Source of the DNA: Azolla caroliniana
Taxonomy: Eukaryota > Plantae > Polypodiophyta
DNA length: 64,000 nucleotides
NCBI GenBank assembly: GCA_043228905.1
Contig: JBHGNT010000008.1
Span: 11,594,001-11,658,000, forward strand
Direction of reading: 5' to 3'
Shown: positions 1 through 58,844 of the stretch, one piece after another
Position numbering within the stretch: position 1 is the stretch's first letter
Layout: each line of letters begins with the position of its first letter
Notes under the pieces: generated by a model
What the model was told of the DNA's origin: nothing
Databases searched by the model: none
What the model saw: only the letters and a program-made list of their open reading frames with translations
Made by a program: the position numbers and the translations under genes

Positions 1-3000
1 AGAGATTGATCAACACTTCTTCGTGCAAGACTCCGCTTCACATCCCGTCATCCTAGGACAACCATATATAACATCGTCCTGGATGGAGACCAAGGTGTTC
101 GATAATGGATCAGCCTTCGCACGCGACAAGAGTCTTGATAGTAAAAGATCTGTTCAATTCCTGACGGTGCGAGCTAATCAAGAAAGGAACCGAGATAGCC
201 TTGGAGGCGAATCCTCAGATTTTTAAAGCGGACTATTGAAGCATGGGGCACAAATAGTCTGAGCAATCATAAGTCCCCACAAGGAAGCAGAGTGTGTGGA
301 TAGCAAGGAGAAGCAACATGCGTCACACCTAGCGGCGCATGCAAACTAAGACTACTCAACAAGAAGGAAAAGTGTCAGATACAAGACTTCGAGGAGGTGC
401 TCAAAGAAGAAAGCATAATTGAAGAAGAAGAATTCGTGTCATATATTCTGGAGGAAGCCTCATTTAACGACACCATCGGTGAAATCGAGGAAGTCGTGGA
501 CTTGAGCTATACTCACCATCAACATGTGATTTCGGTTAACTCCGTCAACATGTATACTATCATCGATGAATATCATCGAGGCCTGTTGATAGAGGAAGCC
601 GAAGTCAACACAAAATATAAAACCGTGGATAGGAAGATCAAGCCAGTTGCAGTTTCGCTACCGGAAGATAGCTGGCAAAAGGTGAAGGAAGTTGCAAAAG
701 ATCCAAGCTTAAGGAACCAAAATACAATTGGCCATGTCTTCACTGAAGAGATGAAGGGAAAGCTACGAGTTGGAAGGGAGGATTTCCTCCTCCCTGAAGA
801 GGAGCGGATGTTTCGTGGAATGCTTGAAAGACATTGGAAAGCTTTCGCGTTTTTCCCACAAGAAATCGGGTGTGCTAATCCAAGGATGGTAGAACCGATG
901 GTGATCTTCACGATGCCGCATGTGCCATGGAATTTGAAACCGATACCGGTTTTGAGAGCACACCTACCGAAGCTTATTGAGGTCTTAAAGGAGAAGGTGA
1001 GGATGGGAATTCTAGAACCGTCGAACGCTCCTTATTCTAATAAGTGGTTCATGGTGCCAAAGAAGAATGGATCGTTGCGATTCATTCAAGATCTTCAACC
1101 CGTCAACAAGGTGACAATTCGGAATGCTGGAATCGGTCTGAGTGTGGATGAATTTGTTGAGGCGTTTGCGGGCCGGTCCATCTACTCCATCGGCGATCTC
1201 TACTCTGGCTCAATAGGGTTGGTGCGGATGTGTACCTTACCTCAAGGTGCAACAAACTTGGTGGCTCATATGGTGAATGCCATGAACAAGGGTCTTGAAG
1301 GATTGCATCCCGGATATCACGATGCCATTCTTAGATGATATTCCGATAAAAGGATGTTCGGATGAAGAGAAGGATGAATCAAAAGATAAGGATGGATGTA
1401 GAAAGTTCGTTGTGGATCATATGAAAGATTGCGAGAAGGTGCTCCAAAGGCTCAAAGATGTGAATTTGACATTTTCGGGAGAAAAATCTGCATTCGGGCA
1501 ACCGGAGATCCTGGTGGTAGGTCACTTGTGTGGAGCATACGGTTGGAAGCCTTTGCCATCCAAGGTGAATGCAATCCAAGACATGAAAGAAGAATGTGTA
1601 ACCCAAACGGAGGTTTGAAGGTTCCTTGGAGCATGCACGTTTTATCATATTTGGATTCCACACTACGCCCACATTGCTAAGCCATTATATGGTCTACTAA
1701 AGAGGAAGCGGATGTTCGAATGGACGAGCGAGCATATAATCGCCATCCGAAGGCTGAAGAAATTATTGATGGAGTCACCTGCATTACGGAAAGCGGACTA
1801 TTCATACCGCAAGACGATTTTCGTGACTGTGGATACTAGTCCAATCGGAATTGGATGGGTTATTAACCAAGAAGATGAAGATTGCAACTGATATGCAATT
1901 CGGTTTGGTGCGAAAGTGTTAAGTGACAGGCAAAGAAGGTATGCCCAAGTGAAGAGGGAGCTATGGGGAATCATCTCGGCAATCAAATTTGATCGTGATT
2001 ACCTTATTGGAGCAGAAGTCATAATTGAGATAGATTGCCTACCAATTTTGGGTATGATATCTGGTTGTAATACACCGGATATTGCCATGTTGCGTTGGAT
2101 TGCATATATCAAATCACTCAACCTGGAGATCCATCATGTACCTGGGAAGCGTAATGTCGTTGCAGACATGCTATCACGAGCGAAATACGACGGAGAAGAA
2201 GATCGACATTCTGATGAAGATGATGTTGGCTTGGATTTCTTTGCAAGTTCCTACACTCGGGTGTTGACTACTTTCATAGAAGAGGACTATGAAGGCGAAT
2301 TCGTGGAGATCGAGAAATACTTGAGTTCTCTCCAAAAAGATGAATCGTGGTCGACGGAAGACTTCTATCGAATTTGGAAGAAGGCATACAAGTATTTCCT
2401 TAAGGATGGAGCTCTTTGGAGGCATGCAAAAAAGAAGAATGGGACTCCGATGAGAGTTGTCTGCAAGCTAGAAGACCAACAAAAACTAATGACTGAATTT
2501 CATGATAGTGTTTTTGCAGGCCATCGAGGAATATGGGCTACGTTTGCGAAGCTTAAGGAGAAATATTGGTGACCGGGCATCTACAAAGATTTAGTAGCTT
2601 ATGTGGAAACATGTAAGGAATGTCAAATGTTTTCGAATATTTGCCATCGAGATGGACTTCATCCGACTTACCTGTTGGCTATGCATTACAAGTGGATGGT
2701 GAACATCGTGATGATGCCAATGGGGCGATGGCAGATGAAGTATCTTGTGCTCGCGAGAGAGGATCTTACCAATCAAGTTGAAGGGCAAGCATTAAGAACT
2801 AAGGAGACATCATCGGTATGCCGATTCCTTCTTGAAGATGTTATTTGCAGATATGGATGCGTCGGCAAGATAGTGGTTGATAGAGGCCAGTTGGATGCTA
2901 ATGAAGCTAGAGAATTCTTCTCGAGGATGGGAATCAAATTATCTCTTTCCGGAAGCAAATGGGAAGGTGGAACGTGGACATGGACCGATTGTGAAGCCTC

Positions 3001-3606
3001 TAGTGAAATCTTGCCATGGGAAAATAGGAGAATGGCCGCGTCTATTGCCATTTGCTCTCTGGGCTGACAGGACTACTCATAGCACGGTGACGGGATACAT
3101 GCCGGCAAAGCTCATGTTTGGACAAAAGCCAATAATGCTTGTAGAACAAAGTATTATTTCATGGTTTGCATTGCCATGGAAAGATGAGATAAGTAGAGAA
3201 GATCTTCTAGCATTGAGGATTCGACAATTAGAGCGGAATTTGGAAGATATAGAGGTGGCTAAAACGTGGCTAAAGAATGCAAGGCTAAGGAACAAGAAAG
3301 ACTTCGATAAACGACATCGACTTCGGTCGAGGAAAATCGTTGAAAGAGATTGGGTGCTAGTCTATGACAGTAGCCTAGATAACCAACATAGTACGGCTCG
3401 AAAATTCTCACAACGATGGTTTGGGCCATATGTGGTGAAGAAAGTGGAAGATAATGCAACATATCATTTAGTAGAACTGGATGGTACACCACTTGCCTCG
3501 CCAATTGCCGGTAAAAGAATCAAGATCTTCAAGAGAAGAGATAGAATAGAAATTGGATTCGAAGCTTTTGACGATTCAGTTTTAAGCATCGATGAAAAAG
3601 TATAGT
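1..3606 (+). mobile_element. Degenerate Ty3/Gypsy element A (non-chromovirus, same family as B): end of protease, RT, RNase H, integrase; 5' part outside window, no cognate 3' LTR seen
   Basis: ORF fragments 23-226 (VILGQPY), 397-1618 (RT: KKNGSLRFIQDLQPVN, FLDDIPIKG), 1916-2572 (RNase H: RELWGII, NVVADMLSR; GHRG), 2603-3605 (IN: EANGKVERG, WFGPY); frameshifts and stops. Confidence 0.93.
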
Positions 3607-6600: not shown

Positions 6601-8030
6601 TCGCCGGCCGGTTCCGGTTTCGATTTTGCTTGCCGGTCAGTTCCGGTTCCGGTTTGCTTGCCGGTTCGGGTTGCGGTTTTGCTTGCCTGCCGGTTCCAGT
6701 TTGCTTGCTAGTAGATTCGTATGATTTTATTAAACTATTAATACAAAATGATAAAGATTCACAAATTTCATTAATAAAGGGAAAGAAAGATTACAATCAA
6801 TCTCAAGATTGAGATTACAAAAAGTTTAGCTAATGGAGATTACTAGAGTAATAGATAAGAGAAAATAAAGATATGGATTGTATAGAAATTTAGGGTTATG
6901 AGTAAGTTCTTCCATATGGAAAATTAGGGTTTTTGAGTCTTATGGCTTCCGTAGGGAAATTAGGGTTTGTGAGCCATATGGCTTGCGTAGGGAAATTAGG
7001 GTTTATGAGCCGTATGGTTTCCGTAGGTAAATTAGGGTTTTTTGCTTCCTTAGGGAATTTAGGCTTTATGAGAGCTATGGTTCCCTAAGATAAGGGAGCG
7101 AAGAAGGAAAAGAAAAATAATGGAGAGAGCCCGAGTGTAGGAAACCAAATGGAATATATATGGAGTTCTCCCTTGATCATAGCCTTTCCACTTTTTGTTG
7201 CATGGCCTCTACTTTTAGTTGCTTAGCTTTTTCTTTTTGTTGCATCTATTTTTAGTGGCATGGCTTTTTCGTTTAGTTCCATGTGACCGTCGACATGACC
7301 TTTACTTTTTGCATCCACTCCAACTTTAGTTGCTTGCATCCACATGGCCTTTACTTTAGTTCTCTTCACTTTACTTTAGTTTCTTGCATGATCCAATCTC
7401 CTGTCCGTCCGCGTCCAACCTCGTCCGGTAGCCGGTTTCGCCCGATCGCCGAATCCCTCGCCGACCAGTTCCATTTTGCTTGTCGGTTGCGGTTCCGGTT
7501 TTGCTTACCGGCCGGTTTCCAGTTTTGCTGGCCTGCCGGTTCCGGTTCCGGTTTGCTTGCCGGTTGCGGTTGCGGTTGCGGTTGCGGTTTTGCTTGTCGG
7601 TTGTGGTTCCAGTTTTGCTTGTTGACCGGTTCCGGTTCCAGTTCCGGTTTTGCTTGCCGGCCGGTTTTGATTCCGGTTCCGGTTTTGCTTGCCGGCCTGT
7701 TCCGGTTCCGGTGTGCTTGCTGGATCTAGGTCCAATTTTGCTTGCCAGATGGTTCCAGTTCCGGTTTGCTTGCCGGTTCCGGTTCCAGTTTTGCTTACCG
7801 GCCGGTCTCCAGTTCCGGTTTGCTTGCCGGTTTCGATTCCGATTTTGCTTACCGGCCTGTTTCCGGTTTGCATACCGGCCGGTTTCCAGATTTGCTTACC
7901 GGATTGGTTTCCGCATTTGCTTACCGGACTGGTTTCCGCATTTGCTTACCGGACCGATTTCCGGATTTGCTTACCGGACCAATTTCCGTATTTGTTTACC
8001 GGCCGGTTTTCGGTTTTAGGGAATTAGGCC
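3617..8030 (-). repeat. Tandem array of about 5 degenerate 0.56-1.3 kb units derived from an LTR plus tRNA-Trp PBS, with 36-bp TTAGGGTTT-containing and CCGGTT-rich sub-repeats
   Basis: Block (G)CATGTGACCGTC recurs near 3931, 4947, 5527, 6421, 7281; LTR-end TGTC at 4317, 5225, 5783, each preceded by a tRNA-Trp 3'-end-like 16-mer; 25-bp period at 7891-8010. Confidence 0.85.
4198..4289. repeat. 40-bp inverted repeat (2 mismatches, 12-nt loop) next to the first PBS copy of the array
   Basis: Left arm 4198-4237 TTCCGGTTTTGCGTACCGGCCAGTTTCCGGTTTGCATACC; right arm 4250-4289 GGTATGCAAACCGGAAACCGGCCGGTAAGCAAAACCGGAA. Confidence 0.9.
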
Positions 8031-14106: not shown

Positions 14107-14843
14107 TTGAAGCGACTACTTAAGGATCTGCAAGTGGAGGTATCCGATCCAACGACAATCTATTGCGACAACCTCAGCAACATCCAGCTAGCAAAGAACC
14201 TCGTCTTCCACACCCGGACTAAGCACATTGAGGTGCACTACCATTTCATCCGTGAGCGTGTCCTCTCCGGTGAAGTCGAACTTCAGTATCTTTTGACGGA
14301 TCGGCAAACCACCGACATCTTCACCAAGCCTCTTGGTCTGGACAAGTTGCAACAATTCACGGTTGTGCTTGGGTTGCGTCACCTCGACGTGCTGAACTTG
14401 AGGGGGAGAGACTTCCCGAATGACCACAGAAGAGGGAGAGAAGTTCCGGAAGACCGTGACACCGAGTCGGATGACGAAATCGATTTCGGATCAGCTGAAG
14501 AAGTCGAGGGCGGATTTGCGGAAGATTCTGCAAGCGGAAATAAGTGGAGTGTCGCCACATGAGGTGTACTTCAAGAAGAAGCCGAACTTGGCACAATTGA
14601 GGGTTTTTGGTAGCATCGCATATGTGCATGTGCTAAAGGAGAAATGGAGGAAGTTGGACGCCAAAGCCGACAAGTGTATCTTAGTTGACTACTCCGACGA
14701 GCAGAAGGGTTATAAGTGTTATAACCCCCGAACCAAACAAGTTGTACATCATATGGAGGTAAAGAATGAATTCTTGCAAGAAGAACTTGAGGAACAAGTG
14801 TTATAAAGGGGTGGCATTTACCTCAGATGGATGTAAAGAATGT
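14107..14843 (+). mobile_element. Scrambled Ty1/Copia fragments (RNase H and 3' region, integrase C-term, RT start), tentatively Bryco/RLC5-like
   Basis: IYCDNLSNIQLAKN...RTKHIEVHYHFIRE; LRVFGSIAYVHV...KGYKCYNP; QMDVKN immediately before element F. Confidence 0.85.
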
Positions 14844-17800
14844 TGTTGCCGTTTAGGAACACGGTCCGCGGTTAGTCCTTCAACCTAGACCTCAAAGTGG
14901 GTGTGGAACAACGAACAAGTGTTTAAGCGTAATGCGTAAGGGAAGAACCCCTGTAACCTATCAACATATAAGGGGAGACGGCTACAACCGAATCCCTATC
15001 AGGGGTTAAACTTACGTACTCAAACGCTTAGGTATTCAAGACACACACACTGAATTAGCCGTAGTTATACACAAAAAATCAGAGAAGATAGAATTCTATT
15101 ATCAGGCGTTTCTTCACATTCCCCAAAATTACACGCACCTCCATCAGAGGTTTTCTGCCCTTTATATATGCAGGGTCTATTTGGCCGTTCACGCTTCCTG
15201 CGTGAACCGTTACATGCGTTATGCTCTTATATAATTTCTTATTCCTACGCTTTTGTCCATCGGTTACTATTCCGGTGGACAACACTTGGCACGCCTGTGG
15301 GATAGTGCCCTCGCATGTCGGACCCATCCCGTTAATCCTGTTCGGCTCTGTTGTGGTGTCCTCGTCCGGAGGTGATGTAGGGCCTGTAGGTGCATCGTGG
15401 TGTGGCTCCTCTGTTTGGCCGGGCTGGTTTCTCCCGGAGTTGCCGTCGCCGTGTGTGGGTGGTCCGGGTACGATGAGCTCTTCTTGAGTTAGTGGGTTGG
15501 GCTCCGCCGTTGTCGTGCTTGCAGGTGGCTGCGGCTTTGCCTCCATTGTTACGTCCTCCGTGGTGTCGGCCGTTTTTGTATGTTCCGAGCAGTGGGGCGG
15601 AGATTCCGCCTGGTCCGCACCATTCTCCACGTGGTCTGATGATAGTGTGGGTCGTGCGGCTGGACCTCTTGTTGTGTAGTGGTTTCGCTGTCTGGTCCTG
15701 TGGGGAAGTCCGCTCGTCGGTCCCCGCTATTCTCCATCGTTGTCATCTCTGGTGATCAGGCCTGAGGTTCCTCTTCTTTGGTTGTGCCCGGAATTGGCGT
15801 CACGCTAGATTCCTCGTTTGTGCGCGTGTTGCCGGCTTGTGTGATCTAGTGAAATAGCTCTTCTTGACTTTCACCAAAATCATCTAAGAGTTGTGCGAGC
15901 TCTTCGGAGTGTTGGTCTGCTAGCGCACGATAGTCTTGCGCTAGGTCCTCCCGTACGGCCATAATGCTCTCCTCATTTAGTTATAGAAACCTCGACCGTC
16001 TTTTCGCCGGTTCTCCCAGTCCGCACGATACACGTGCAATTCCGTTGCTTGGGTTGCCCACGCCATCCATCCTTTGTCCAGCGCCATTTTCAATTGCATT
16101 GTGAACCTCTCCCGATTTGTTTGGAGAAGGATCCGCACGTTATCTGTGATGGCTTGGCAACGGTTGCGTGCGTCTTCCATTGACTTCTGGAGATTTGCGA
16201 TTTCCTTCTGCGAGCGAGGGGAGCGCTGATAGCTAGAAGATGGGTTTCTGCTTTGTGTAGAAAATCTTCTGTTTCCTTCTTTTAGTGGCTTAGGGTTCGT
16301 TGGGCGGTGAGCCATCGTGGTGCCACGTGTTCTTGAACTAGGAGTTTGTGCATGCCTTTAGTCGTTTTATTAGTCGCTATCTTCTCCTCTCTCTTTTTTT
16401 CTTTTTTTTTTCGTAACGGCTATTTACAACCTATTTTTACATTCTAGTACAAGTGGGGATGTCCATTTTACGTTGCGGGTTCTCCGGCTCTGTCCTGTTC
16501 GGCGGTGAATGGGTAAGGTTTGAGCCGAAACCCATTCAACTTTTGCCGTACTACTTCTCCAGCCAAAATTCCTAGTTGGAACGTGCCTTGTTCCGCTCCA
16601 ATTATCCAGTATGGGCCGGTCCAGCGGAAACGTAACTTCCCCGGCATATGGCCCATGCGCGTTTGAAAAACTAGCACCGCTCGGCCCACGGCGAACTCCT
16701 TTTCCCTTGCGTTCCGATGTCGATCCACAAATGCTTTACGCCGTCGCTGTTCCTGTTCCAACACAGCCATGTTGTGGACGCGTTTTTCCCCTAGTTCGAG
16801 GAGCTCGTAGAGCCGTACCTCCTCCGACTTGGCTTATGATAATCGGTTCCGTACCTCAATGCGCAAACTAGGTACCTGAAATTCGACCGGCATCACAACC
16901 TCCAGTCCAAACGCTAGTCAGAACAGTGTTGACTGTATGCTTGTTTTGTAGCTAGTTCTATACGCCCATAACGCAGTCTGTAGTTTGGTATCCTAGTCCG
17001 TTCTATTTTCATTGACGGTTTTCTTCAAAATGGTATGTAATGTCTTGTTGGTGGTTCTGCTAATCCATTCGCCTGCGGATAATATGGCATGCTCTTCTTA
17101 CGGACTACGGCGTGATGATGTGTTAGTTTGCGAACCACCGTATTGAGAAAGTGACTCCCCTGGTCACTGATGAGCTCTATCGGACAACCGAACTGGCACC
17201 AGATGTGCTCGTAAAGGAATCTGGCTGTGACGGCCGCCATATTTTCACATAGTGCCTTTGCTTCTACCCATTTGGTGCAGTAATCCGTGGCTACCAATAT
17301 GTATTTATTGCCCGTACGGGCCGCTACTGGTGTGAGGGGCCCTACAAAATCCAATCCCCACTTTTGGAAGGGGTCTAGCGGTAATACGGACTGGTGTGGC
17401 ATCCTTGCGTCCTCCGCGGGCTGACCCATCCATTGACACAAATCACACTTTCTACAATACTCGGATTCATCCTTCTGTGCTGTTGGCCACCATAAGCCCG
17501 CCTGCCATACTTTCCGGGTTGTCATGTCGCCCGCGTAATGGCCTCCTGCCGTGCCGTAGTGTGCTCTCATAAAACTGCTTCCTTCTCATCTTGACGGAGC
17601 CCACGTCGCCAAATGACGAGGCAGAAGTGATAGCTTCAGACGGCTAGTTGTTTCTTCTCGTCCGTGCGTAATAGTGGTGGAGGCAGTTCTGTAGTTAAAA
17701 AGTATGTCATTTCCATAAGCCACCGGTCCGGAAAGGTCGATTCCATTTTTTCTACACGTGTCACTACTCGCAGGATGTCGGCGTCCGTAAAACTGTCGTC

Positions 17801-20800
17801 GTTTTTCTGTATTGTTTCTCCATTCTCGAGTCTGCTCAAAAAATCCGCCACTGCGTGTTGCGTCCCTGGTCAATGCTGAATTACGAAATCGAATTCCTGG
17901 AGCAGCAACATCCACCGTGCCAATTTCCCTATCAGAGCTTGTTTCTCCACCAAATAAAGTAGTGCCAAATGATTCACGTGGAACGTGAATTTCCTTCCTA
18001 ATAAATAGTGTCGGAATTTATTGATGCTATAGATCATCCCTAGCGCCTCCCGCTCTGTTGTGGAATAGTTACGCTCTGCTGCTGACAATTTACGACTCGC
18101 ATAGTATACTGGCCTGTACCAGTTTGGTTCGGTGAGCTGCATTAGTGTGCTTCCTATTGCTATGTCCGAGGAGTCGACGAACACGTGGAATGGCTTCACC
18201 CAAACTAGTGGTTGTACGACGGGAGCTTGTGTGAGCAATATCTTAAGTGCCTAATAGGCCTTATCCTCCATTGCAGTCCATTGGAACGGAGTCCGATGTA
18301 CGACAGCGTGTAGCGGTGTGGTGAAGTCCGCCAAATACCGTATCATCCGACTATGCCACCATATTTGTCCTAAAAACCGGCTAAGCGATTTGGCGTTTGT
18401 CGGAGTTTTGGCTTGCATAATCGCAAAGATCTTGTTTGGGTCGACCGCTATGTGGCCTAGGAGAGTCCCGTTGATCACGCCGAAGGCACATTTTGTGGGA
18501 TTCAGGCTTAAGCGTGCGGTTTGGCAACGTTCCAAGCACAGTCTGGACACGCCTCCCATTCGGAAATGCCTAACTACTCGCAAGTTTTCGTGCTAATTAC
18601 ATTGACGCCTGAGCCGCCGTCGATTACGCATCCAGGAACTTCCTGTCCGTGCAATATTACTGTACTAGCCGGGTTGTGCTGATCCACCACCGGCAGTCCA
18701 TCGCTAATATCTGTCAGGTTTGTGGCGACACTTGCCCCCTGGGTATGCCCGTCGCCCGTTCTTCCATGGTCTGGCGGAAGCGTGGAACTAGTTGTAGCAG
18801 TTTTTCCATGGTTAACGTTATTTCACAGCCTACTAACGCCTGCCAAATGGGGTCTGGACCCGGTGTTTCGTTCTCTGTTCGCTCCATTGTGTTCGCAGAC
18901 TCCTGCCGCATACGTTCCGTATTGGTCGCGTTTGCTTTTTCCACCCACGCTTGGGCTTGTCGGCGTACCTCGTCTTGCGCAACCCAATCCGCCGTTTTTG
19001 TTTGCTAGCATGTCGTGACTTGTTGCACCTCCGCCGTAATCGTATTGACAGCGGGCCCCTTTCCCTTGCGTGTTGGGCATTGCGTGGCATAATGTTCGGG
19101 TTGTTGACAAATAAAGCAATGAATGCTTGATTCTCCCTTCTCGGTTCCAGGTGGTGTGTGCCGCTCCCCTGGTGCTACTTGCTCTTCGCAGTCTGGCCTC
19201 GTTTGTCGGAACGTACGCGGTGGCTACTGTTGGTCCCGTCGTTGTTCCTAGTGCCGCTCATCCCCCGAGCTTTCGTCGTAACGCCGGTGATCCCTATATT
19301 GCCGTGGCTTACCCCAATAGCCATTGAAACCACCTCGTTTGTTTGTCGGTCGTTGATTCTCGTAGCGCCGACCCCCTTTGGCATAACTTGGATTTCCACG
19401 ATATTCCTCATCCTCTGAGTCGTCCTCCTCGGAATCGTTGTGGTTCCGGCGATTCCGGTTGTACCGCTCCTCCCGCGGGTTGCAATCGTTATACTGAGGT
19501 CGGTCTTCTTGCCTCCTTTGGTCAGCCCGGTGCGGTTGACATTGTGTGTGCATGTTGCGGACTGCGGGAGTGGCTCTGTTTAACATATTGTACTCGCAAT
19601 GGGCGACTGTGTGAGCCTTTGAGTGGCAGATTGGGCAGGGGATTCGCATATTGCACTCCACTGCGGAATGCCCCGAGTTCAAGCAAATCGTGCACTGGAT
19701 TGCTTGACGAAACTAGCGTTCCTCGTCCTGAGGTAACGCTTGTCGTAAGGAGGACATAGAAAACCTTTCCTCCTCGTCATCCAACTCGAGCTGTAACACT
19801 TGTTCAATTACCATATCCGCCGTTTCCCCTTTCACGCTATTGTTGTTGAGCGTTGCCCGGATGGGCCGGCGTAAAGCTGCCAGAAATGTTTCCCAAGCCT
19901 CGTCCTCCGTGGGGCTTCGTTCCAGTTTCTGTCGTAAATTTTGGAAACGTAAGCTGACGTCCACTATCGTCTCGGTCGATAATTGCTTAATTGTATAAAA
20001 TTGCCCGAGAATCTCGCGTTGTGGAACCCTCCGATAGAAGAATCGCAAGAAAGCGGACTACAGCTGATCGAAGGTTGTTATGGCTGGTAAATCCATCTGT
20101 GAATGCCAAAACGCCGCACGCCCATCTAATGTTAATCCGAAATCCGTCATTTTCGAGTGGTGTGCCACCGTCTCGGAGAGATTCTGCACCATGTGGTTCG
20201 CATTCCAGACATTCAGGAACATGCGAATATGAGTTGCGGCGTCGGTTTCACCGTCAAAGCAGGGGTAGGCAAAGGCCATAGTGGGAGCTACGACGGGTCA
20301 GGAAAGACCACAGGGTGGTGGTGGTGAGCGTGGTCCCCGTGTCTCGTCGAGGTATTTGCGGAGCGAAGAATCCTCTTTGCACTCACGATAAGTAGTACTG
20401 GGGTCGTTGAGTCGCGGCTTTTGCCGTGCGCGTTCTTCTGCCTAGCGTGTGGCGGACCTTGTTATTGGCCGGTCTTGTCGTGTTGGTTCTCTGGGTTGTC
20501 TGCGGCTAAACCTCCATTCGTTGTTGCTCGTCTGTGAGAAAACACAGATCACCAATCGTGCCAAAAGTGTTGCCGTTTAGGAACACGGTCCGTGGTCAGT
20601 CCTTTGACCTAGACCTCAAAGTGGGTGTGGAACAACGAACAGGTGTTTAAGCGTGATGCATAAGGGAAGAACCCTTGTAACCTATCAACGTATAAGGGGA
20701 GACGGCTACAACCGAATCCCTATCAGGGGTTACACTTACGTACTCAAACGCTTAGGTATTCAAGACACACACACAAAATTAGCCGTAGCTATACACAGAA

Positions 20801-21008
20801 AATCAGAGAAGATAGAATTCTATTATCAGGCTTTTCTTTACATTCCCCAAAATTACACGCACCTCCATCAGAGGTTTTCTGCCCTTTATATATGCAAGGT
20901 CTATTTAGCCGTTCACGCTTCCTGCGTGAACCGTTACATGCGTTATGCTCTTATATAATTTCTTATTCCTACGCTTTTGTCCGTCGGTTACTATTCCGGC
21001 GGACAACA
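14844..21008 (-). mobile_element. Gypsy element F (non-chromovirus, Athila/Tat-related), both LTRs present, RT largely deleted, extra ORF after integrase
   Basis: 441-bp LTRs 14844-15284 and 20568-21008; TSD AATGT/AATGC interrupting Copia RT motif QMDVKN|AFLQGEL; gag 20058-20279 and CCHC 19248-19682; RNase H 17870-18238; IN FQKWGLDFVGP 17025-17570. Confidence 0.95.
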
Positions 21009-22492
21009 AATGCATTCCTGCAAGGAGAACTTGAGGAACAGCTGTACATGGTACAACCCCCCCGATTTCAGTCCGGAAAGAACACCTCGGCGGTATGCCG
21101 ACTAAAGAAGTCCCTCTACAACTAAAACAAGCCCGCGCGCATGGAACACAAAGATCACGCAACGCTTGCGCCGGATGGGGTCGACGACGTCTAAATCAGA
21201 CTCTTCATTGTTCGTCTGGCAAAGTCGGCATGGACCGGTTAGTATTTTACTTTAGTTTGATGATTTAGTCATCGTCGACGCCAACCTAGAAGAAATCGGC
21301 CGCGTAAAGTCCCAGCTTGCGGCATCATTCAACATGAAGGACATAGGGGATCTTCATTACTTCCTAGGGATCGAAGTGATCCACACCCTCAAAGGCATAT
21401 TGATCAGCCACCGACATTACGTGCTGAGGACGCTCTTCAAGTTTGGGATGGTAGACTCTAAGTCCATCTGAACTCCTCTGGACAGAAACATCAAGCTTCG
21501 CCGAGATTCAAGAAAGTCGTGCGACCCAACACAGTTCCGACAAAATTGTCGGAAGCCTAATTTATTTGATGATCACTTGGCCGGATCTCAGTTACCCGGT
21601 TGTCCTCATCAGTCAATCTATGTCGCAGCCCACGGCCGAACACCTTCAGTGCGCGCAAAGGATATTGTGCTATGTCCACGGCACTAAGGATATGGCGTTC
21701 TTATATCGGACCGGTATTGCCGAACAACTCGTCGGCTACTCGGATTCTGACTGGGCCAAAAACGTCAACGATCGTAGATCCACATTTGGGTTCGCTTTCT
21801 CACTTGGAAGCGCCGCGATCGCCTAGGGCAGCAAGAAGCAGCCGACAGTTGTACTGTCAAGCATGGAGGCTGATTACCGAGGAGCGGCTATCGCGACATG
21901 CGAAGCCATTTCGCTCAAGAGGCTACTCAAGGATTTGCACGTGGAGCTGTCCGCTCCGATGAAGATCTATTGCGACAATCTCAGCAGCATCCAACTTGCA
22001 AAGAAGCCCGTCTTCCACACCCGGACCAAGCACATTGAGGTGCCCTACCATTTTGTCCGTGAGTGTGTCCTCTCCAGTGAAGTCGAACTAGCGTATGTTT
22101 TGACGGATCGGCAAACTGCCGACATCTTCACCAAGCCCCTTGGTCTTGACAAGTTGCAACAATTCTAAGGTGCGCTTGGTTTGCGGCACCTCGACGTGCC
22201 AAACTTGAGGGGAAGAACAGACTAGTAAAGGGAGTAGGAAAGGAGCGGAAGTGACCGCCTGAGTCGGATGAAGAATTCGATTCAGGTCGATTGAAGAAGC
22301 CAAAGGCGGAAACAAGGGCAGCAACGGAAGGGAAGAGCCGGAATCATCCGAACAAGGGGGATTTGAAGCCAAGAAAGGCGAGAAGGACAAGACCAAGACT
22401 TGGTCTGATGTGGTTAAGGGCCTAAGGACAGAAGACGAATTGGAGACAACCAATTCGTGCAACAACAGAAACGAATCAGAGAAAGCTGATTC
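21009..22492 (+). mobile_element. Continuation of host Copia: RT, RNase H and 3' region (pseudogenised)
   Basis: AFLQGELEEQLYMVQPP, LKKSLY, GYSDSDWA, CDNLSSIQLAKKPVFHTRTKHIEV. Confidence 0.92.
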
Positions 22493-23008
22493 TGTCATGA
22501 AGACAGCATTTTGGTTATCAAGAATCGAACCCACGACTTCATGGTCTATGTGTTGAACCCTTAACCATTGTAATAACATATATGTTGTGTGATTATAATA
22601 ATAATGTTACAAGTTATTAGAATATTCTAGATTATTCTAGAACATTCTAGAACATTCTAGATTATTCTACAACATCCTTTAATATTTCATGATTATATTT
22701 CTTATCATAAAATCTAAAATATTCTAGAACATTCTAGATTACTCCATAAGGACCTATAAATAATTGTCTATACATTCGTTTCAACTCATTCGGTTCAACA
22801 CCAGTCTTTAGCCCTTAGCCTACTCATTGTAATGTTGTTTAATCATAATATAATCTCATTTCTATTTCAAGTCTTATCTCTCTCACTCCTCTCTCTCTCA
22901 CTCTATCTCCCTCACTCTCTCTCTCTCATGCACACACACACACACACCGTCTCTCTTTCGCTCTCACTCTCGCTCTCACTCTATCTTCTACCCACGAGTC
23001 TCGACAGT

Positions 23009-23019
23009 TTGAACCGAAT
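23009..23019 (+). promoter_or_regulatory. Self-priming PBS of element C
   Basis: TTGAACCGAAT, 2 nt after the 5' LTR, is the exact reverse complement of ATTCGGTTCAA (22788-22798), which starts 33 nt after TATAAA at 22755. Confidence 0.85.
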
Positions 23020-23090
23020 ATTTCTATTTCCTTTTCCAATAACCCTAGCAAGCTTTCTTCTTTTCCCTTCTTTCTTTTTCTCCCTCAGTT

Positions 23091-24218
23091 ATGGAATCCG
23101 TCAGCAAGCAAGAGTATATGCGTGTCCTTTCTGAGCTCGACATGCTCACAACTAAGTTTGTGGCATTAGAGCAAGAAAATCATAGGCTACTCGGGGATTT
23201 ACAACAAGTGAGTACCGAGAAAGCTCATCAATATGAGGAGTTATCACAACGGGTTCATCAACTCGAGGCTACTATATTAACATTACGAGAACAAGCGGCG
23301 GGGGTTCAAAACTCCCCAAGGGAACCAAAGATTAGCCTCCCTGCCAAGTTTGATGGTACCCGATCTTTGTTTCGAGGTTTCCTAACTCAAGTCCGTTTGG
23401 TGATTCAGTTACATCCCAATCGGTACCCAACTGATGCTGCTCGTGTGGGATTAATAGGAACCTTGCTAAGCGGTACCGCATTAGCATGGTTTGCACCACT
23501 TCTAGAGAAGAAATCACCATTGTTGGAGGATTTCGAGGCATTCGTTAAAGAGTTTCAAGCTAGTTTTGGAGACACCGATAGCACTAGAACGACAATAAAC
23601 AAGATTCGAAGACTCCGACAAGGAGATCGTCCCGCTTCAGCCTACGCAACAGATTTCCGTCTCTTGGCATGTGACATCCCTTGGGATGAGGCAGCCTTAA
23701 TGGATCAATTTCGTGAGGGTTTGCGTAACGATGTTAAAGATCTTCTTCATACTATCCACGAAGATCCAAAGTCTCTTACAAAGGCCATTAGTCGAGTTGT
23801 GCGATGTGATAATCGCCTATTTGAGCGACGTTCTGAACGTCAACAAATTATACGCCGTCAACCGGAACAGACGTATGCTTCAATAGTCGCAACACCGCCA
23901 CAAGTTCCCAGACCCGTTACGAGGGATGGTCCCACTCCGATGGAAATAGAGTCAACACAACGTCGAGGGCCTTTATCAGATGCTAAGAAACAACGACGTC
24001 GGGCGCATCGCCTATGCCTCTATTGTGGTGGTCCAAGACATATTGCTGTGAATTGTCCACATAAACCCAGACGACAAGTTTACCAAGCAAGTGCACATGA
24101 CAACCCTACCATGGGTTCTACTATCACTTCTAATAATTTAACTACTAAGCCTAATAACCCATGCCATAAGAATAGATTTGATGTCTTGAGCCAATTAGAG
24201 GATGTGTTAAACGAATAA
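23091..24218 (+). CDS. gag: Retrotransposon Gag of element C (intact ORF; coiled-coil N-term, capsid, CCHC)
   Basis: 375-aa ORF; EPKISLPAKFDG, LRQGDRPASAYATDF, CLYCGGPRHIAVNC. Confidence 0.92.
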   Translation: MESVSKQEYMRVLSELDMLTTKFVALEQENHRLLGDLQQVSTEKAHQYEELSQRVHQLEATILTLREQAAGVQNSPREPKISLPAKFDGTRSLFRGFLTQVRLVIQLHPNRYPTDAARVGLIGTLLSGTALAWFAPLLEKKSPLLEDFEAFVKEFQASFGDTDSTRTTINKIRRLRQGDRPASAYATDFRLLACDIPWDEAALMDQFREGLRNDVKDLLHTIHEDPKSLTKAISRVVRCDNRLFERRSERQQIIRRQPEQTYASIVATPPQVPRPVTRDGPTPMEIESTQRRGPLSDAKKQRRRAHRLCLYCGGPRHIAVNCPHKPRRQVYQASAHDNPTMGSTITSNNLTTKPNNPCHKNRFDVLSQLEDVLNE

Positions 24219-24257
24219 GTCCGGCCAAAATAGGAGCCATTTGGTTGGACCATCCTA
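24206..24257 (+). promoter_or_regulatory. -1 programmed ribosomal frameshift signal (slippery site plus H-type pseudoknot)
   Basis: G TTA AAC 24206-24212; 6-nt spacer; stem 1 GTCCGGCCAAA 24219-24229 / TTTGGTTGGAC 24240-24250; stem 2 TAGGA 24231-24235 / TCCTA 24253-24257; -1 frame is open into pol. Confidence 0.8.
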
Positions 24258-27200
24258 GATATGTAGAATCTGTACCTAGTTGTGGTTCCATTTCATCAAA
24301 TCAAGTTAGTAGAGTTTTTTCTGCACAAGTCAAGCTTAGCACATCTACAGTTCATCGAGTCCTAGCCTCTACCCTCCTACATTCTGGAGCCAATTCTTGT
24401 TTCATGGATCGCGAATTTGCATTGACCCAAAACATCATCTTGAACAAGCTCCCAAACCCAGTAGCTGTAGGAGTGATTGATGGTCGCCCTATAGCATCAG
24501 GTGATATAGTTGAAGAGTCTGAATCAATTCGTGTAGTCCTAGGTAATTTTGCTAGTATCATCTCATTCAACATCATTAGTAGTCCAGAGCACTCTCTAGT
24601 TCTTGGTCTTCCTTGGTTTGAGTTACATAACCCAACTATTGATTGGAGAAAAAGAACTATTGAAGAGTTCATAGTACAATCCGAGTCTCTTGAAACTCCA
24701 ACAAAGGATCTAGGATCCCACATGATTTCAACAATCTCCATACATCAGTTACGAGAGGATGGAAGGAAGGAAGACATGATGGTGTTTGCGGTTTTAGCAA
24801 CTCCCTCATCTACCTCACAAGAATTGGGGGTCCAATTACCAAAGAAGTACATAGAATTCTCCGATGTGTTCGATAAGGTGAAGGCTAATAGATTACCAGA
24901 GCATCGACCCTATGATTGCCCAATTGATTTGCAGCCAGGAAAAGAGCCTCCATGGGGGCCAATTTATAACCTTTCGCCCACGGAGTTAGAGGTTCTTCGA
25001 GAATATATAGATGAGAACCTGGCAAATTGTTTTATCCAACATTCAAGATCTCCTGCTGGTGCACCCATCTTTTTCGTTAAGAAGAAAGATGGTACGCTTC
25101 GTATGGTCGTGGATTATTGGGGCTTGAATAAAGTCACTATTAGAAACCGATATGCTCTACCATTGATCTCAAGCCTTCTAGAACGCCTCAGTGGAGCCAA
25201 GTTTTTCACGAAGTTAGATCTTCGAGGTGCCTACAACCTTGTTCGAATTCGTCCTAGGGATGAATGGAAGACCGCATTCCGCACTCGCTATGGTCATTTT
25301 GAATATACAGTGATGCCATTTGGTCTCACGAATGCACCAGCAGTTTTCCAACATATGGCGAATGACATTTTTCGAGACTTCCTCGATATCTTCATCATAG
25401 ATTACTTGGATGATATCTTGATCTACTCAAAAACTCAAGAGGAGAATGAGATACACGTTCGCCAAGTTTTGCAATGGTTACGAGAGTATGGTCTCTATGC
25501 AAAATTGGAGAAGTGTAGTTTCGACCAGTGTCAAGTAGAATTTTTGGGGTACAGAGTCTCTTCAAATGGCATCTCTATGGATCTATCAAAGGTTCAAACA
25601 ATTTTGGATTGGCAAACACCATAGTCTGTGCGAGATGTACAATGTTTTTTGGGGTTCGCAAACTTTTATCGCAAGTTCATCAAAGATTATTCAAAGATTG
25701 TATTGCCCCTCACTCAACTAACGCGCAAGAATCAACCATTTGTATGGGGTATAGATGCGAACTCTACATTTGAGGATTTAAAGCAAGCGTTTACATCTGC
25801 ACCAATTTTAATGCATGTCAATCCAATGAGGCGCTTTATACTTGAAGCTGATGCATCTGATTTCGCACTTGGAAGCGTACTATCCCAGATTGGTGAAGAT
25901 GGCGAACTGCACCCTGTGGCTTTTCATTCACGGAAATTTGAAGCCGCAGAAATCAACTATGAGATTCACGACAAAGAGCTTCTTGCCATTGTGGATTCTT
26001 TTCAACAATGGCGTCATTTTTTGGAGGGCTCTTCTCAACAGATTATTGTCTTCAATGATCACAAAAATCTAACATACTTCCAAAGTGCTCGAGTCTTGAA
26101 TCATCGATAAGCTCGTTGGGTGCAGTTCTTAACTCGTTTTGATTTTGTAATTCTATATCCCCCTGGGATGCAACAAGGAAAAACAGATGCTTTCTCTCGA
26201 CATTCGTATATGGAACTTCAACCAGGAGAGGCCGCATTTGAAAGTCAAAAGCAAATCCTCTTAAGTCCTGATCGTCTACGAGTAATGGCAATATATACTA
26301 TCAACACACCAGGAGATTCGAGGCTTCTTGATTCCATTCGGGAGTAGATTGCGATAGATGGATTCGCCCAAGAGGTTTTGAGTCATATTATCCCCGATCG
26401 TGCTTCCAGCTCTCAATCTAAAAATCCTCGTCTAGACTACACCCAGTTCAATTGGCATGATGGTTTGATTTTTCGACAAACTCTCTTGTATGTGCCTGAT
26501 GGTCCTTCTCGACTCAAAGTCGTGCAACAATGTCATGACACGCCAATGGCTGGACATTTCGGCATCCACAAGACTTTTGAGTTGATTTCTCGCTGATATT
26601 GGTGGCCACGGCCTCGCCATTTTGTTACGGATTATGTTCGTAGTTGTAATACATGTTACCGATCAAAAAAGCCTCGACATCATCCATATGGCCTATTACA
26701 GCCAATGCCTATTCCGGAGAGCCCATGGAAATCTATTTCCTTGGACTTTATTACGGATCTTCCACCTTCCAAGGGATTTGATTCTATTCTCACGGTAGTC
26801 GATCGTTTTACAAAGATGGCACATTTCCTTCCATGCACAAAGACCATTACTAGTCAAGAGACAGCCGATTTACTCATGCGGGAAGTGTTTCGCCATCATG
26901 GTCTTCCGGATGATATTATAAGTGATCGGGGTCCCCAATTCATCTCGAAATTTTGGCGGCACATGTTCAAACTCTTACATACTTCTTGTAAACTCTCTTC
27001 CGGCTACCATCCAGAGACTAATGGGCAAAGTGAGCGCACCAACCAAACAGTCGAACAATATCTACGTTGTTTTGTCAACTATCAACAAGATGATTGGGTG
27101 GATTTATTACATTTGGCGGAATTTGCTTACAACAACTCCGAACATTCTTCCACTGGCTATTCCCCATTTTTTGCTAACATTGGGTACCATCCTTGTTGGA

Positions 27201-27841
27201 CGATGCTTGAACATCCCGAACTCCCGAAAAACCCGACTGCTAAAGATTGGCTCACTCGACTCCAAGAAATTCAAGATATACTTTTGCATCATTTATGTGA
27301 TGCCCAAAACACTCAAAAGAAGATTGTTGATCGTCATCGGCATGATTCATCGACTACGTTTCAAGTAGGAGATCGTGTATGGCTCTTACAAGGTAGCATT
27401 AAAACCACTCGACCTTGTTACAAATTGGATTATCAACGTTTCGGCCCATATCTGATCTCTAGTAAGATCAATGACGTGACATTTCGTCTTGATCTCCCTC
27501 CTCATATGCGTCTTCACCCGGTCGTCCATGTTTCACTTTTGGAGCCCTACACAACAAGCTCTATTCTGGGTCGTCTTACACCTCCCCCACCTCCAATTGA
27601 AGTTTCCAATGGCTCTGAATATGAGGTTGCTGCTATTCTCGACTCCAAGATCATCCGCAACAAACTATATTATTTGGTTGATTGGTTAGGTTATACACCT
27701 AATGATCGAACATCGTAGCCTGCCAAGCATCTTGCTAATGCCTCCGACATGGTTGTTGCATTTCACGACAAATATCCCCATAAACCAAGTCCGAACTCTT
27801 GTCTTCCGACTCGTGGAACTCGTCATCGAAAGGGGGGATAA
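24245..27841 (+). pseudogene. pol: pol of element C (PR-RT-RH-IN-chromodomain) with several in-frame stops
   Basis: ORFs 24245-25624 (YLDDILIYS), 25628-26110, 26120-26596, 26705-27718, all in one frame and separated by TAG/TAA/TGA. Confidence 0.92.
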
Positions 27842-30800
27842 TGTCATGAAGACAACATTTTGGTTATGAAGAATCGAACCCACGACTTCTTGGTCTATGT
27901 GTTGAACCCTTAACCATTGTAATAACATATATCTTGTGTGATTATAATAATTATGTTTCTAGTTATTACAAGATATTAGAATATTCTAGAACATTCTAGA
28001 ACATTCTAGATTATTCTAGAACATCCTTTAATATTTCATGATTATATTTCTTATCATAAAATCTAAAATATTCTAGAACATTCTAGATTACTCCATAAGG
28101 ACCTATAAATAATTGTCTATACATTTGTTTCAACTCATTTGGTTCAAGACCAGTCTTTAGCCCTTAGCCTACTCATTATAATGTTGTTTCATCATAATAT
28201 AATCTCATTTCTATTTCAAGTCTTATCTCTCTCACTCACTCTCTCTCACTCTCTCTCTGTCTCACGCACACACACACACACCCTCTCTCTTTCGCTCTCA
28301 CTCTATCTTCTACCCACGAGTCTCGACAGATTCGGTTCAAATTGTCACGGATGAACAATTGGAAGACAAAGAGATGGCCAAGTTGATTAGATAGAAAGAT
28401 GGATAAGTTGATGACAATGAGTACCAATATGTATTCCATGACTGGTGTTGATCTCCTTGATGTTAACAAGGGAGATCAAGACTTTTTATACATATAGTGA
28501 TGCATGATAAGCATGCTCATGCCAAGTCATACATACTATAATATTAAGCATACTGATTCTTGCATGCCAAGTCTTACATACTGAGTCTTACATACTAATT
28601 CTTACATACCACTCTTTATACAAAGGTTTAAAGTCTAAAGTCTTTCTAGGAGAAATATATATATACAAGGACCTAAGTCTTGAATTCGACTTGATGTTCA
28701 TGACATTATCCTCCCCTTAAGTGCTGACTTCAAGAAGGTGCAGGTTTGTGAGGATATCGGAGATTAAAATCATGAACCACATCTAGGGCATTGGGTAATT
28801 TTTTTTGTAGGCTCCCAGGTGGCCTCAAAAATGGGATATCCTTTCAACAAGACCAAATACTGGAGATTTCGTCAGCTCTTGCATGAGTCTAGAATGGTCT
28901 CGACTTCATACTCATCCCCGGTTGCCAATGCCACAACGGGTGGCGGCTCGATGCTTCTTCCTGGAATTGAGGATGGATGGTAGAGCTCATGAAGAGATGC
29001 ATGGAAGACATGGTGAATTCGGTAGTGTGATGGAAGAGCAAGACAGAAAGCTACGGGGTTGACTTTGTCAACAATTTGGAATGGACCCAATCTTTTGTAA
29101 TCATGTTTGTTGCATGGACGAGTAGTCGGAATATGCCATTGTAATAGCCAGACCATGTCGCCGACTTTAAAACTAGGTGCATTCCACCAATGTCAATCAA
29201 CCTTCTCTTTGTGTCGTTCCTGAGCAATGGAGAGTTTGAGGGATAGGTCATGGTGTACTTTTTTCATCAGATGAGCTCGTTCTTCAACAGATGGATTCAC
29301 AGAACCAGCAGGGATAGCTATGTTAAAGCATGGATGGAACCCATAGTTTGCGAAGAAGGGAGAGTATTGTTGTAGGCGAACTTGGCCATTGGAAGAAATT
29401 TGATCCAATCATCTTGTTGATAACTTATCTTACATCGGAGATATTGCTCTAGAATCTGATTCACTCGTTTTGTTTGTCCATTTGTTTTAGGATGGAAGGC
29501 TGTCGAAAATTTTGTAGAAGTTCCAAGTGTCTAGAAGAGGCGTTTCAAGAAATGAGACATAAATTTGGGACCACGATCAGAGATAATGTCATCCGGGAAA
29601 CCGTGAAGGCGCACAATATTTGTTAATAAAAGATCCGTTGTTTCCATCCCTAAAATTGCCTTAGAACATGGAATAAAGTGTGCCATCTTTTTGAATCTGT
29701 CAACCACCACCAATACTGAATTGAATCCACCAATGTCTGGAAGGTCAGTGATAAAGTCCGTCGAGATGGAGGCCCATGGCCTATTTGGATTTGGCAAAGG
29801 TTGAAGTAGACCGTAGGGATGATGATGTACTACTTTGGCGCGGGCACATGTATCACATGTTTTCACGAATTCGTTAACAAGTTTCCAAGGTTGTGGCCAC
29901 CAATAACTTCTAGATATTAAACCCCAAACCCTAAACCCTTCACGATACGTATACGACAAGGACCATCTGGGACATACGTTAAGTTGTACCGGAAAAGAAA
30001 ACCATCCCAAAACATAAATTGGTTATGAATATCCCGTACCTCGCCTTTGGATGAGTTGTTGAGATTCTCCCTAATCTCTTGTGCAAATTTGTCGGTGGCA
30101 GTATTTGTGGCTATGGCATTGAGTAATGATTCATCCACGGCCATATAAGTTGCATAAAGTTGAAATTGATGTGGCTGTGATTCTTGATTGTAGGTTGCAT
30201 CCCCCGACCGAATTTCGAATTCCGAACTTCGAGATAGTGCATCGGCTTTACCATGCTGGGCACCAAGACAAAAAACAATTTCAAAGTCATAATCGGCCAG
30301 GAAGGTCGACCATCGTGCTTGCCTTCGATTCAAAATGCGAGTAGTGGTGAAGTAGACAAGGTTCTTGTGATCGGTCATCACCTGGATACGGTGTTGGGCG
30401 CCCGCCAAGTAAGGACGCCATTCTTCAAAGATGGCAATAATGGTAGAGAGTTCTTTGTCGTAAATTGGGTAGTTGATCTCGGGGGGTGTGAACTTCCTGG
30501 AATAAAAGGCAATAGGATGAAAGGAACCCGTTTTTATCTGATTGAGAGAGAATGGCACCAATGGCGAAATCAGAGGCATCAGTTTCAACTGTAAATGGTT
30601 TGGTCAGATCTGGATGAAAAAGTACTGGAGCCGAGGTAAAAGCTTTCTTTAGTGTGTCGAATGCCAGTTGGGTTGTTGGAGTCTAGCAAAAAGGGGAATC
30701 CTTCCGAGTGAGTGCTATAAGTGGTTGCGCTAGTGTAGAGAATTCTTGGATGAATCGACGATAGAAGTTAGCAAAACCCAAAAATGATTACACATCCTTG

Positions 30801-51900: not shown

Positions 51901-52037
51901 TGGGTTTTCCACGTAAACATTCTCTGTGCCCTTTTCTCTCCTTTGTGTCGTGTGTTTTCCGTTTCCTGTTTCCTGTGTATGAAAAGAATCTCGGTTGTGG
52001 CCGAGCGTTGTGCATAAGGAGCGTTGAGTTCCCGTCA
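48952..52037 (+). mobile_element. Ty1/Copia element H (Tork/Tnt1-like), internally deleted
   Basis: TSD GATAC 48947-48951 and 52038-52042; 5' LTR remnant 48952-49057 fused to IN C-term; RT 49409-50560 (LLYVDDML); RH 50561-51088; PPT 51087-51096; 3' LTR 51099-52037. Confidence 0.95.
51184..51573 (+). repeat. 54-bp tandem repeat (about 7 copies, two variants) in U3 of the H LTR
   Basis: Unit GAACCGGATGAGGAGTACCCGGCTACGGAGAGCCGGATGGTGCAGACCCGGTAT. Confidence 0.95.
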
Positions 52038-52635
52038 GATACCCCGCAATGAGGGCCCAGAGCCAAGGGTGGAAGAGGAACCGGTTCAAACATAATCGAT
52101 GACAGAAGTCCCTGCGCTGCAGGCTCCGCCAGCGGGTCAGAGCATGACAAGACCCGTGATTCTGGAGCCGGTGATTCAGTTGCCTACATCACCGGCATAG
52201 CAGGACCAACAAGAGCTGGAACGGCCGACTCAGGCACAACTAGAGCCAGTACTGCCAAGTGGTACCCAGCCAGAGCTAGAGCTATCAACTAGACCAGATC
52301 AGACACTAGCAAACGCAAAAATCGGCCAACCCTCCGCGCCGACACAGCCACAAGACACGGGCAGCCAATGGCTACGGTGGATCGGTGAGCAAATAGCCAG
52401 AGTGGTCCATTATATGGAGGCAGAGGAGAAAGCACAAGTGGACCGGTTGCTAGCCACAACCTGAGAACAAGAGAAGGCCCGGTCAAGGATTCGGAGCTTG
52501 GAACGAGAAGTGGAAATAGCCAAGGAAGAATTGGCTAAGAAGGTCATCACAGGACCCCAGGAGCAGGAACCGGTGGCTCCGGTACATGTATAGAATAATG
52601 AAATACCGGCAATTGTACATAATAACACGACCCCG

Positions 52636-53664: not shown

Positions 53665-53729
53665 TTTGAAAGTTACGAAAAGGAGAGGCTACGACAAGAA
53701 GCGACAAAGAGCATTTTTTTTTTGGCGGG

Positions 53730-56374: not shown

Positions 56375-56791
56375 CTGCTCATAAGAGAACAATTGTGAGA
56401 AGAATTCTACATGGAAATTCAATGCAATATAAAAAATTCCGACAAGCAATGTCAATCAAGCAACCGAAGCAATCATGTCAATATAACAAACACTCTGATC
56501 CAGCACTTTAAGGCAGTTTGCATTCTATTTATTCAAAAATCACATTTATCTTGGAATGTACATAATACACCCTAGAATTATAAGATGATAAACTTTAAGA
56601 ATAAGTACCCACAAATAATATATATGTCAATAAATGAATCTTTTTACCTTTTCTGTATTTTTCTTTTTCAGAAGCAGTGATGCATATAAATGACGAGCTC
56701 AGTGACAAAATTTAACAAAATGCATTCAAGCTGACATCCCAGATAGCTTAAAAAATAAAACAAGAGATAAAGAAGAAATAATAAAAATTAC

Positions 56792-58790: not shown

Positions 58791-58844
58791 TGCAGTACTA
58801 TGTATCAGAGGAGCGTAAGTGTGTTAAGGAATCCCGAGAAGCCA

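Follow-up and report, generated by a model that had tools for sequence, protein, structure and literature searches.

The window, by which we mean the whole 64-kb stretch of Azolla caroliniana DNA analysed here, carries several LTR retrotransposons and the exons of a host gene. The element at its centre, F, is of the Ty3/gypsy type, and its parts are listed in Table 1 together with the primer-binding site (PBS) of a related element, G. The target-site duplication (TSD) around F is 5 bp long, and its two LTRs differ from each other at 20 positions, 17 of which are transitions. Pfam matches to gag, zinc knuckle, RNase H and integrase all fall on the minus strand, and a TATATAAA box (TATA) lies on the same coding strand in both LTRs (15168–15161 and 20892–20885). 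The minus-strand orientation given in the preliminary description, where ORFs and TATA box were said to agree, is thus upheld, and the sense-facing box together with the minus-strand domains rules out the reverse. The PBS given there, TGGCACG at 20563–20557 with a match over 7 nt, was likewise found where stated. The order gag-PR-RT-RH-INT is seen in F; the RT core is deleted in this copy and present in G and its relatives. A deletion at 18544 has removed some 410 codons, among them those of the RT YxDD motif; tblastn alignments jump there from residue 178 to 592 of P0128 and from 124 to 536 of P0182. Because of this deletion, the F copy is non-autonomous.

F is inserted in the RT region of a copia element (14839–14843 / 21009–21030). 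Assembled contigs from public sequencing runs show empty-site joins at which the inserted letters vary, so the target of F is itself a repeat. Contigs from runs X1 and X3 also join 15289 to 19411, skipping 4121 bases, and represent an internally deleted F-family derivative.

Element G lies on the plus strand and carries, behind its integrase, a long charged and coiled-coil-like extra ORF in the sense direction (52594–53700) with no Pfam match; the corresponding ORF of F is shorter and degenerate. A copia element interrupts G at 48952–52000, and the right LTR of this copia element contains a 54-bp tandem array of about nine units (51131–51626) that is missing from its truncated left LTR. A chromodomain-bearing gypsy element at 22493–28332 has an ordinary polypurine tract (PPT), and no TGG-type PBS was seen next to its 5' LTR; it possibly uses Tcn1-like self-priming, judging from this arrangement. 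Two further gypsy-like elements, at 304–3605 and 33612–37833, give weak RT and integrase matches, the second with a DUF4100 domain on the gag side, and a purine-poor tract, GTGGGGGTG, precedes the LTR at 37904. The host gene is a beta-1,2-xylosyltransferase (GT61), with exons at 55640–58823 on the minus strand. Among the 120 matches listed for its exon at 55643–56455, the best named one is from Ceratopteris richardii (64%), and named seed-plant proteins reach at most 49%.

Table 1. Features of element F, and the PBS of element G, in window coordinates
Feature	Position	Strand	Evidence or remark
Element F, Ty3/gypsy	14844–21008	−	LTRs, ORFs, Pfam domains
F 3' LTR, 441 bp, TG..CA	14844–15284	−	TSD AATGT at 14839–14843
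2-nt spacer between tRNA-like CCA and LTR	15285–15286	−	Spacer in L065 also 2 nt
17-nt sense copy of tRNA-Arg 3' end, one base missing (tRNA position ~66)	15287–15303	−	Sequence, variants, edit distance, cofold
4-bp hairpin, element's minus strand; interrupts the match between tRNA positions 59 and 58	15305–15316	+	Cofold
Distal half, copy of tRNA T-stem 5' strand and T-loop	15318–15327	−	Cofold
F degenerate extra ORF region behind integrase	15332–16357	−	ORF list
F remains of RT thumb, RNase H and integrase, with stops and frameshifts	16468–18544	−	Thumb helix FLGQIWWHSRMI
F remains of gag, zinc knuckles and protease	18545–20297	−	ORFs, Pfam
F PBS TGGCACG, 7 contiguous nt	20557–20563	−	4-nt spacer from 5' LTR
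F 5' LTR, 441 bp, TG..CA	20568–21008	−	TSD AATGC at 21009–21013
Element G PBS TGGCGACCAC	42521–42530	+	Related to F; PBS shared with L065

The sequence ahead of the 3' LTR of element F

Immediately ahead of the 3' LTR, the sense strand of F reads TCCCACAGGCGTGCCA-AG-TGTTG. Over the 20 nt that precede the LTR, purine runs reach no more than 3 in F and likewise in L065, a metagenomic relative described below, compared with 10–12 at 4/4 other LTR junctions of the window and 7–13 at 3/3 outgroup loci. A PPT adjoining the 3' LTR is absent from F and L065 and present at 7/7 scored controls. What stands in this place resembles the 3' end of a tRNA that we take to be tRNA-Arg(UCU), a label that comes from the preliminary description and from stand-in tRNAs. 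On the minus-strand cDNA, its proximal half (15287–15303) would form a putative tRNA-binding site at the PPT position. The motif had originally been placed at 15285..15320. Its presence, its non-purine character and the CCA 2 nt from the LTR were all found again, but this extent was too small, since the whole site spans 15285–15327.

As a reference independent of these tRNAs we used the 18-nt PBS (7300–7317) following the LTR end of L094, an unrelated plant element at a locus retrieved by RT similarity. Within 3 edits of this PBS, the window has no site other than that of F on either strand, and such sites numbered 0 in 10/10 block shuffles of the window. Across 143 loci (943,014 bases), sites at no more than 3 edits were L094 itself, the site ahead of the LTR in L065 and a single stray hit in L134. 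The edit-distance test was chosen because, under a gap-tolerant local score against the stand-in tRNAs, the site did not stand out from background: of 6398 windows it ranked first with one tRNA and tied for seventh place with the other. No tRNA gene was found in the 64-kb window or in 47/47 loci scanned, and Rfam gave no tRNA match to the split site of F or of L065.

Conservation within the F family was assessed with contigs from four public runs, each from a different study, mapped to 15250–15350 (472, 564, 402 and 99 contigs). Run contigs cover F in 30/30 bins, and the tRNA-like site is retained in 4/4 runs. We found that 9/101 positions of this interval vary at 3% or more. Common variants occur in the spacer at 15286 (T>C, 65–71% of depth in the four runs), at 15303 (78–90%; C and T both pair with G) and in the hairpin loop at 15310 (37–58%) and 15312 (75–89%); the remaining five variable positions are C>T or G>A changes at 0.5–6.6%. 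No variant at 3% or more is listed for 15318–15327, where depth is falling. In most family copies the extra ORF appears to stop at 15334–15332, just before the tRNA-like site, as read by eye from contig loose ends beside the window sequence. Conservation of the pre-3'-LTR motif, which had been suggested earlier as a check, is thus seen throughout the family. It excludes a single-copy rearrangement as the origin of the site, and with it the earlier proviso that other members might have a normal PPT and the F copy be rearranged. In the loose-end rows listed (24 of 137), from contigs at least 80% alike, no purine tract abuts the LTR; copies with a PPT, if a minority, could escape notice at this similarity and with this number of rows.

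The G family and the structure of the split site

The 3' LTR of G was not found within the window, and the 3' junction of its family was read from L065. A metagenome scan yielded 80 loci, 12 of them in the clade by identity or tree, and among these only L065 reaches the 3' LTR junction. It matches G of the window at 78–87% over LTR and gag-pol and includes the end of G's extra ORF. Its order is extra ORF, 3' junction, single LTR (458–917), PBS and gag; as L065 is a collapsed short-read contig, the two junctions may derive from different copies. The TATATAAA (TATA) box is the best-aligned stretch between the LTRs of F and L065. The L065 PBS at 925–934 is TGGCGACCAC, as in G, and follows a spacer of 7 nt (4 nt in F).

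The 3' site of L065 reads GTGGGATTCGA-C-GTACAAGGTAC-T-GTCCCACGGGCGTGCTA-TG-TGTTG, with its 2-nt pre-LTR spacer at 456–457 and the equivalent of the F distal half (15318–15327) at 415–425. It shares with F the tRNA type, the missing base and the 2-nt spacer, while the PBS differs. The preliminary description had predicted that the 3' site would covary with the PBS; in the one family tested this fails, the L065 site ending in GGGCGTGCTA and not in GTGGTCGCCA next to a PBS of TGGCGACCAC. Because the PBS differs while the 3' site stays, the latter does not follow the former. Over the 45 nt before the LTR, F and L065 share 32 identities in 46 columns with a score of 16 (maximum of 8 in 2000 shuffles), and the flanking 45-nt segments score 0 and −14. 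Since the extra ORF of L065 stops at 413–415, the site is non-coding there, and coding constraint is ruled out as the cause of its conservation. L065 reads CTA where a primer needs CCA. Decay would be the simple reading; if CTA were the norm of the G family, it would place a mismatch near the primer 3' end. Taken together, we regard it as confirmed that the tRNA-like site of F is real and non-coding, that it is conserved across two distant families, and that it lies exactly where a PPT is expected without depending on the PBS.

These comparisons bear on two explanations that involve no second tRNA. In one, also raised in the preliminary description, the 3' segment would pair with the PBS, leading to RNA circularisation or minus-strand self-priming. 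The inner junctions of F can indeed form 16 bp interrupted by a 2-nt bulge (−17.8 kcal/mol), and the 5' and 3' ends of Ty3 are joined through a bipartite PBS according to the accessible part of PMC5371799. However, PBS-motif pairing falls from −12.9 to −17.8 kcal/mol in F to −4.9 to −5.5 kcal/mol in L065, where the PBS differs and the pairing is not formed (−5.5 and −4.9 kcal/mol); the tRNA match extends far past the PBS match, and the plus strand would be left without a primer. The failure in L065 largely refutes this explanation, and we see next to no chance of its being correct. In the other, a displaced purine tract about 50 nt upstream would prime the plus strand, and the tRNA-like site would be the relic of an old inverted PBS duplication. 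L065 does have a 7-nt purine run about 50 nt before its LTR, and the loose ends behind 15329–15337 are purine-rich on the sense strand, but these purines belong to the codons for the acidic end of the extra ORF, and the longest purine run within 60 nt in F is 5. Moreover, some 50 extra bases would need trimming, and a relic would not outlast the LTR and the flanks in conservation. We consider this course of events very unlikely.

For cofolding, two tRNA-Arg genes from bacteria, each represented by its last 30 nt at the 3' end, served as stand-ins for the host's tRNA. The minus-strand sites of F and L065 both fold with these arms into the same three-way junction, in which, by F coordinates, 15287–15303 pairs with tRNA 76–59 (one tRNA base bulged), 15305–15316 forms a hairpin and 15318–15327 pairs with tRNA 58–49. 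The energies, computed with RNA:RNA parameters for the bacterial stand-ins, are −28.8 to −30.0 kcal/mol for F and −19.1 to −26.0 kcal/mol for L065, and are partly circular because the stand-ins were found by a motif-derived pattern. The split in the F site falls at tRNA position 58, a methylated base at which PBS pairing ends. The hairpin of L065 (427–437) carries a G-C to A-T compensatory change relative to F. In F its closing pair is G.T on the minus strand and an A/C mismatch on the sense strand, so the hairpin favours the minus strand. By itself it is weak (−1.0 to −1.3 kcal/mol; z −2.5 for F, with 3 bp alone, and −0.9 for L065), and the 51-nt sites of both families fold no better than shuffles. 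On the sense strand F and L065 fold differently, and over 71 nt neither fold surpasses those of shuffled sequences (z −0.5 and −0.8).

A related layout is seen at the other end of the elements. The PBSs of F (20563–20520, minus strand) and L065 (925–960) are followed by a small hairpin and then by a CGAGC/CGAAC box at offset 30–34, and the further pairing predicted downstream of the F PBS consists of 6 bp, a hairpin and the T-loop box. This box could pair with the tRNA T-loop, with spacing as at the 3' site; it is missing there in G of the window and found at that offset in 0/5 outgroup PBSs. This gives a weak hint that the 3' site may have arisen from a split PBS copied in inverted orientation. 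For Ty1 and Ty3, the accessible part of PMC5371799 describes PBSs that are likewise split and pair with the tRNA T arm.

Classification of the clade and its RT thumb

In a quick tree built from 218 columns of RT thumb and RNase H, without named references, F, G, L065 and 14 other rows form one clade (17 rows, SH-aLRT 100). Chromoviruses lie outside it, and so does a group of 34 rows whose motifs suggest that it is Athila-like. Pfam gave no Chromo match in the ORFs of F or G and matches in three other elements of the window; with no chromodomain and a separate clade, chromovirus membership, including Tcn1, is rejected. No archaeal RNase H was found, each element giving one RNase H match in Pfam, and P0154 is collinear with F from the RT thumb to the end of integrase, with no room for a further domain. 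Lacking the extra archaeal RNase H, the elements do not belong to Tat/Ogre/Retand. Phygy and Selgy, which have a 4-bp TSD, a tRNA-Trp or tRNA-Ala PBS and no extra ORF in the accessible part of PMC6317226, were set apart from F, with its 5-bp TSD, different PBS and extra ORF, by these descriptions, the tree containing no reference sequences for them. As to Athila, the clade lies outside the 34-row Athila-like group of this tree without named references, and its PBS is of another type than the tRNA-Asp/Asn PBS given for Athila in the same part of PMC6317226. One neighbouring-group member, useful as an outgroup, is L075 (1–10852), a circular contig with a complete non-chromovirus element; its PPT is ordinary, its PBS is 18 nt long, and a long extra ORF lies in the sense direction. 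No clade member was found in viral contigs, where one search gave 63 distant loci.

With the plant non-chromovirus Ty3/gypsy groups (Athila, Tat/Ogre/Retand, Phygy and Selgy of REXdb, as far as covered in the accessible part of PMC6317226) the F clade shares the lack of a detected chromodomain, a 5-bp TSD and an extra ORF behind integrase, and with TatIII, Ogre and Retand a tRNA-Arg-type PBS. Unlike these groups, F and G form a clade of their own, with no archaeal RNase H found and a TSD of 5 bp versus the 4 bp of Phygy/Selgy. That part of PMC6317226 gives no PPT-less lineage for plant non-chromovirus Ty3/gypsy elements.

The clade also differs in the RT thumb. P0001 aligns to the Ty3 RT (4ol8) with E 7e-71, and the thumb helix reads QIRWHSRM in the clade versus MINYYRRF in Ty3. 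Among the 17 clade rows, W stands at Ty3 Y298 in 16/17, H at Y299 in 16/17 and a residue other than R at R300 in 17/17, whereas rows outside the clade (76, of which 75 were read) have F/Y in 73/75, Y in 71/75 and R in 62/75 at these positions. Of the Ty3 residues, R300 makes contact with the RNA strand, as does N297, and Y298 with the DNA (PMC5371799, accessible part). The thumb change is only a lead, because it is a single evolutionary event and the junction is known for only 2/17 rows. RNase H catalytic residues are intact in the clade, which rules out a dead RNase H.

Priming of the plus strand

Overall, we think that in this clade the PPT has rather probably been replaced by a conserved split tRNA-Arg site, at which a second host tRNA would anneal to the minus-strand cDNA and prime the plus strand; the step from elements to clade draws on the two families with a readable 3' junction, F and L065. 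Plus-strand priming by a second tRNA had been put forward in the preliminary description. It gains support from the family-wide conservation, from the same site and spacer in L065 and from the split T-arm match, which requires a pairing partner from outside; from these we infer the priming step itself.

In such a scheme the minus strand would be primed by a tRNA at the PBS as usual, and RNase H would clear the RNA over the 3' site. The acceptor and T helices of tRNA-Arg would open onto the cDNA, the 3' 28 nt of the tRNA pairing in two helices, 76–59 (base 66 bulged) and 58–49, while the cDNA hairpin would loop out at the 58/59 step. RT would extend the CCA through the 2-nt spacer into the LTR, after which RNase H would remove the tRNA and integrase would trim two bases, as at a PPT-primed end; 2 nt before the LTR is the offset at which integrase trims. 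The one-base deletion can persist because the site is copied from the genome and not from the tRNA. RNase H acts on tRNA annealed to DNA, which counts against a tRNA primer. Speculatively, with the bulge and the junction the RNA:DNA hybrid would consist of pieces of 10, 7 and 10 bp, which may shield the tRNA from RNase H, and the altered thumb helix may serve a tRNA primer.

The main rival to a second tRNA is a fragment of the element's own RNA. Its copy of the tRNA end would survive RNase H and act as a non-purine plus-strand primer, with RT cutting after CCA at a place resembling the tRNA-DNA junction that it already recognises. Such a primer is on the right strand, needs no tRNA invasion of DNA and fits both the 2-nt spacer fixed in the two families and the altered thumb; the L065 RNA can moreover fold a T-arm-like stem. 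Yet a perfect RNA:DNA hybrid gives no reason for two tRNA-matched halves and a hairpin with a compensatory change, the sense-strand folds are neither alike in F and L065 nor above shuffles, and the G.T closure favours the minus strand. We hold this explanation to be unlikely, though worth serious attention. The site could also be a PBS on an antisense RNA begun in the 3' LTR, where tRNA-primed copying would yield plus-strand strong-stop DNA, or it could act in regulation via tRNA fragments. Read on the antisense strand it does look like a PBS, it is built like the split PBSs predicted for F and L065, and a tRNA:RNA duplex would presumably escape RNase H. However, the sole promoter-like box common to the LTRs faces sense, and a site recopied from the tRNA would lose the shared one-base deletion, which makes this route decidedly improbable.

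Returning to tRNA priming on the cDNA, a broader picture can be drawn, for and against which we are evenly divided on the sequences at hand. A whole fern Ty3/gypsy clade would be without a PPT and have both strands primed by tRNA (in family G by two different tRNAs), the hairpin-split cDNA site would be an inverted PBS copy, and the RT thumb would have been retooled for a tRNA:DNA primer.

A literature search, for the most part outside subscription journals, found no description of an LTR lineage without a PPT or with two tRNA sites (dual PBS), in line with the earlier remark that no plant LTR family with this layout was known. Cer7 of Caenorhabditis elegans is said to encode its own tRNA-like primer, which reportedly acts on the minus strand at the element's own PBS. 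The F clade resembles it in having a tRNA-like sequence in the 3' part of an LTR element; in contrast to this account of Cer7, the 3' site of family G mismatches its PBS and replaces the PPT. Ty3 of Saccharomyces cerevisiae and retroviruses use a tRNA at the PBS and a PPT before the 3' LTR (PMC5371799, accessible part). The F clade shares with them the LTRs, the gag-PR-RT-RH-INT order, a tRNA PBS and an intact RNase H site, but has no PPT, carries a split, opposite-facing tRNA site in its position and differs in the thumb helix. Departures from canonical priming are described for the minus strand, namely self-priming in Tf1/Sushi, Tcn1 and TAR, half-tRNAs in copia elements and the split PBSs seen in Ty1 and Ty3, whereas in the F clade it would be the plus-strand primer that is replaced. 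In the accessible parts of PMC5371799 and PMC6317226, from which these variants are taken, minus-strand priming varies, and priming of the plus strand from a PPT counts as invariant in the replication of retroviruses and LTR retrotransposons.

Elements of this kind would be expected to escape annotation software that requires a PPT, or to be placed in reverse by software that takes their orientation from the best PBS. The thumb helix is a candidate specificity change that can be assayed against the solved structure of Ty3 RT with the PPT. If a clade this successful, with its very high copy number, does without a PPT, nature would offer an exception to PPT priming, in which one could test how a plus-strand primer is chosen and removed by RT and RNase H.
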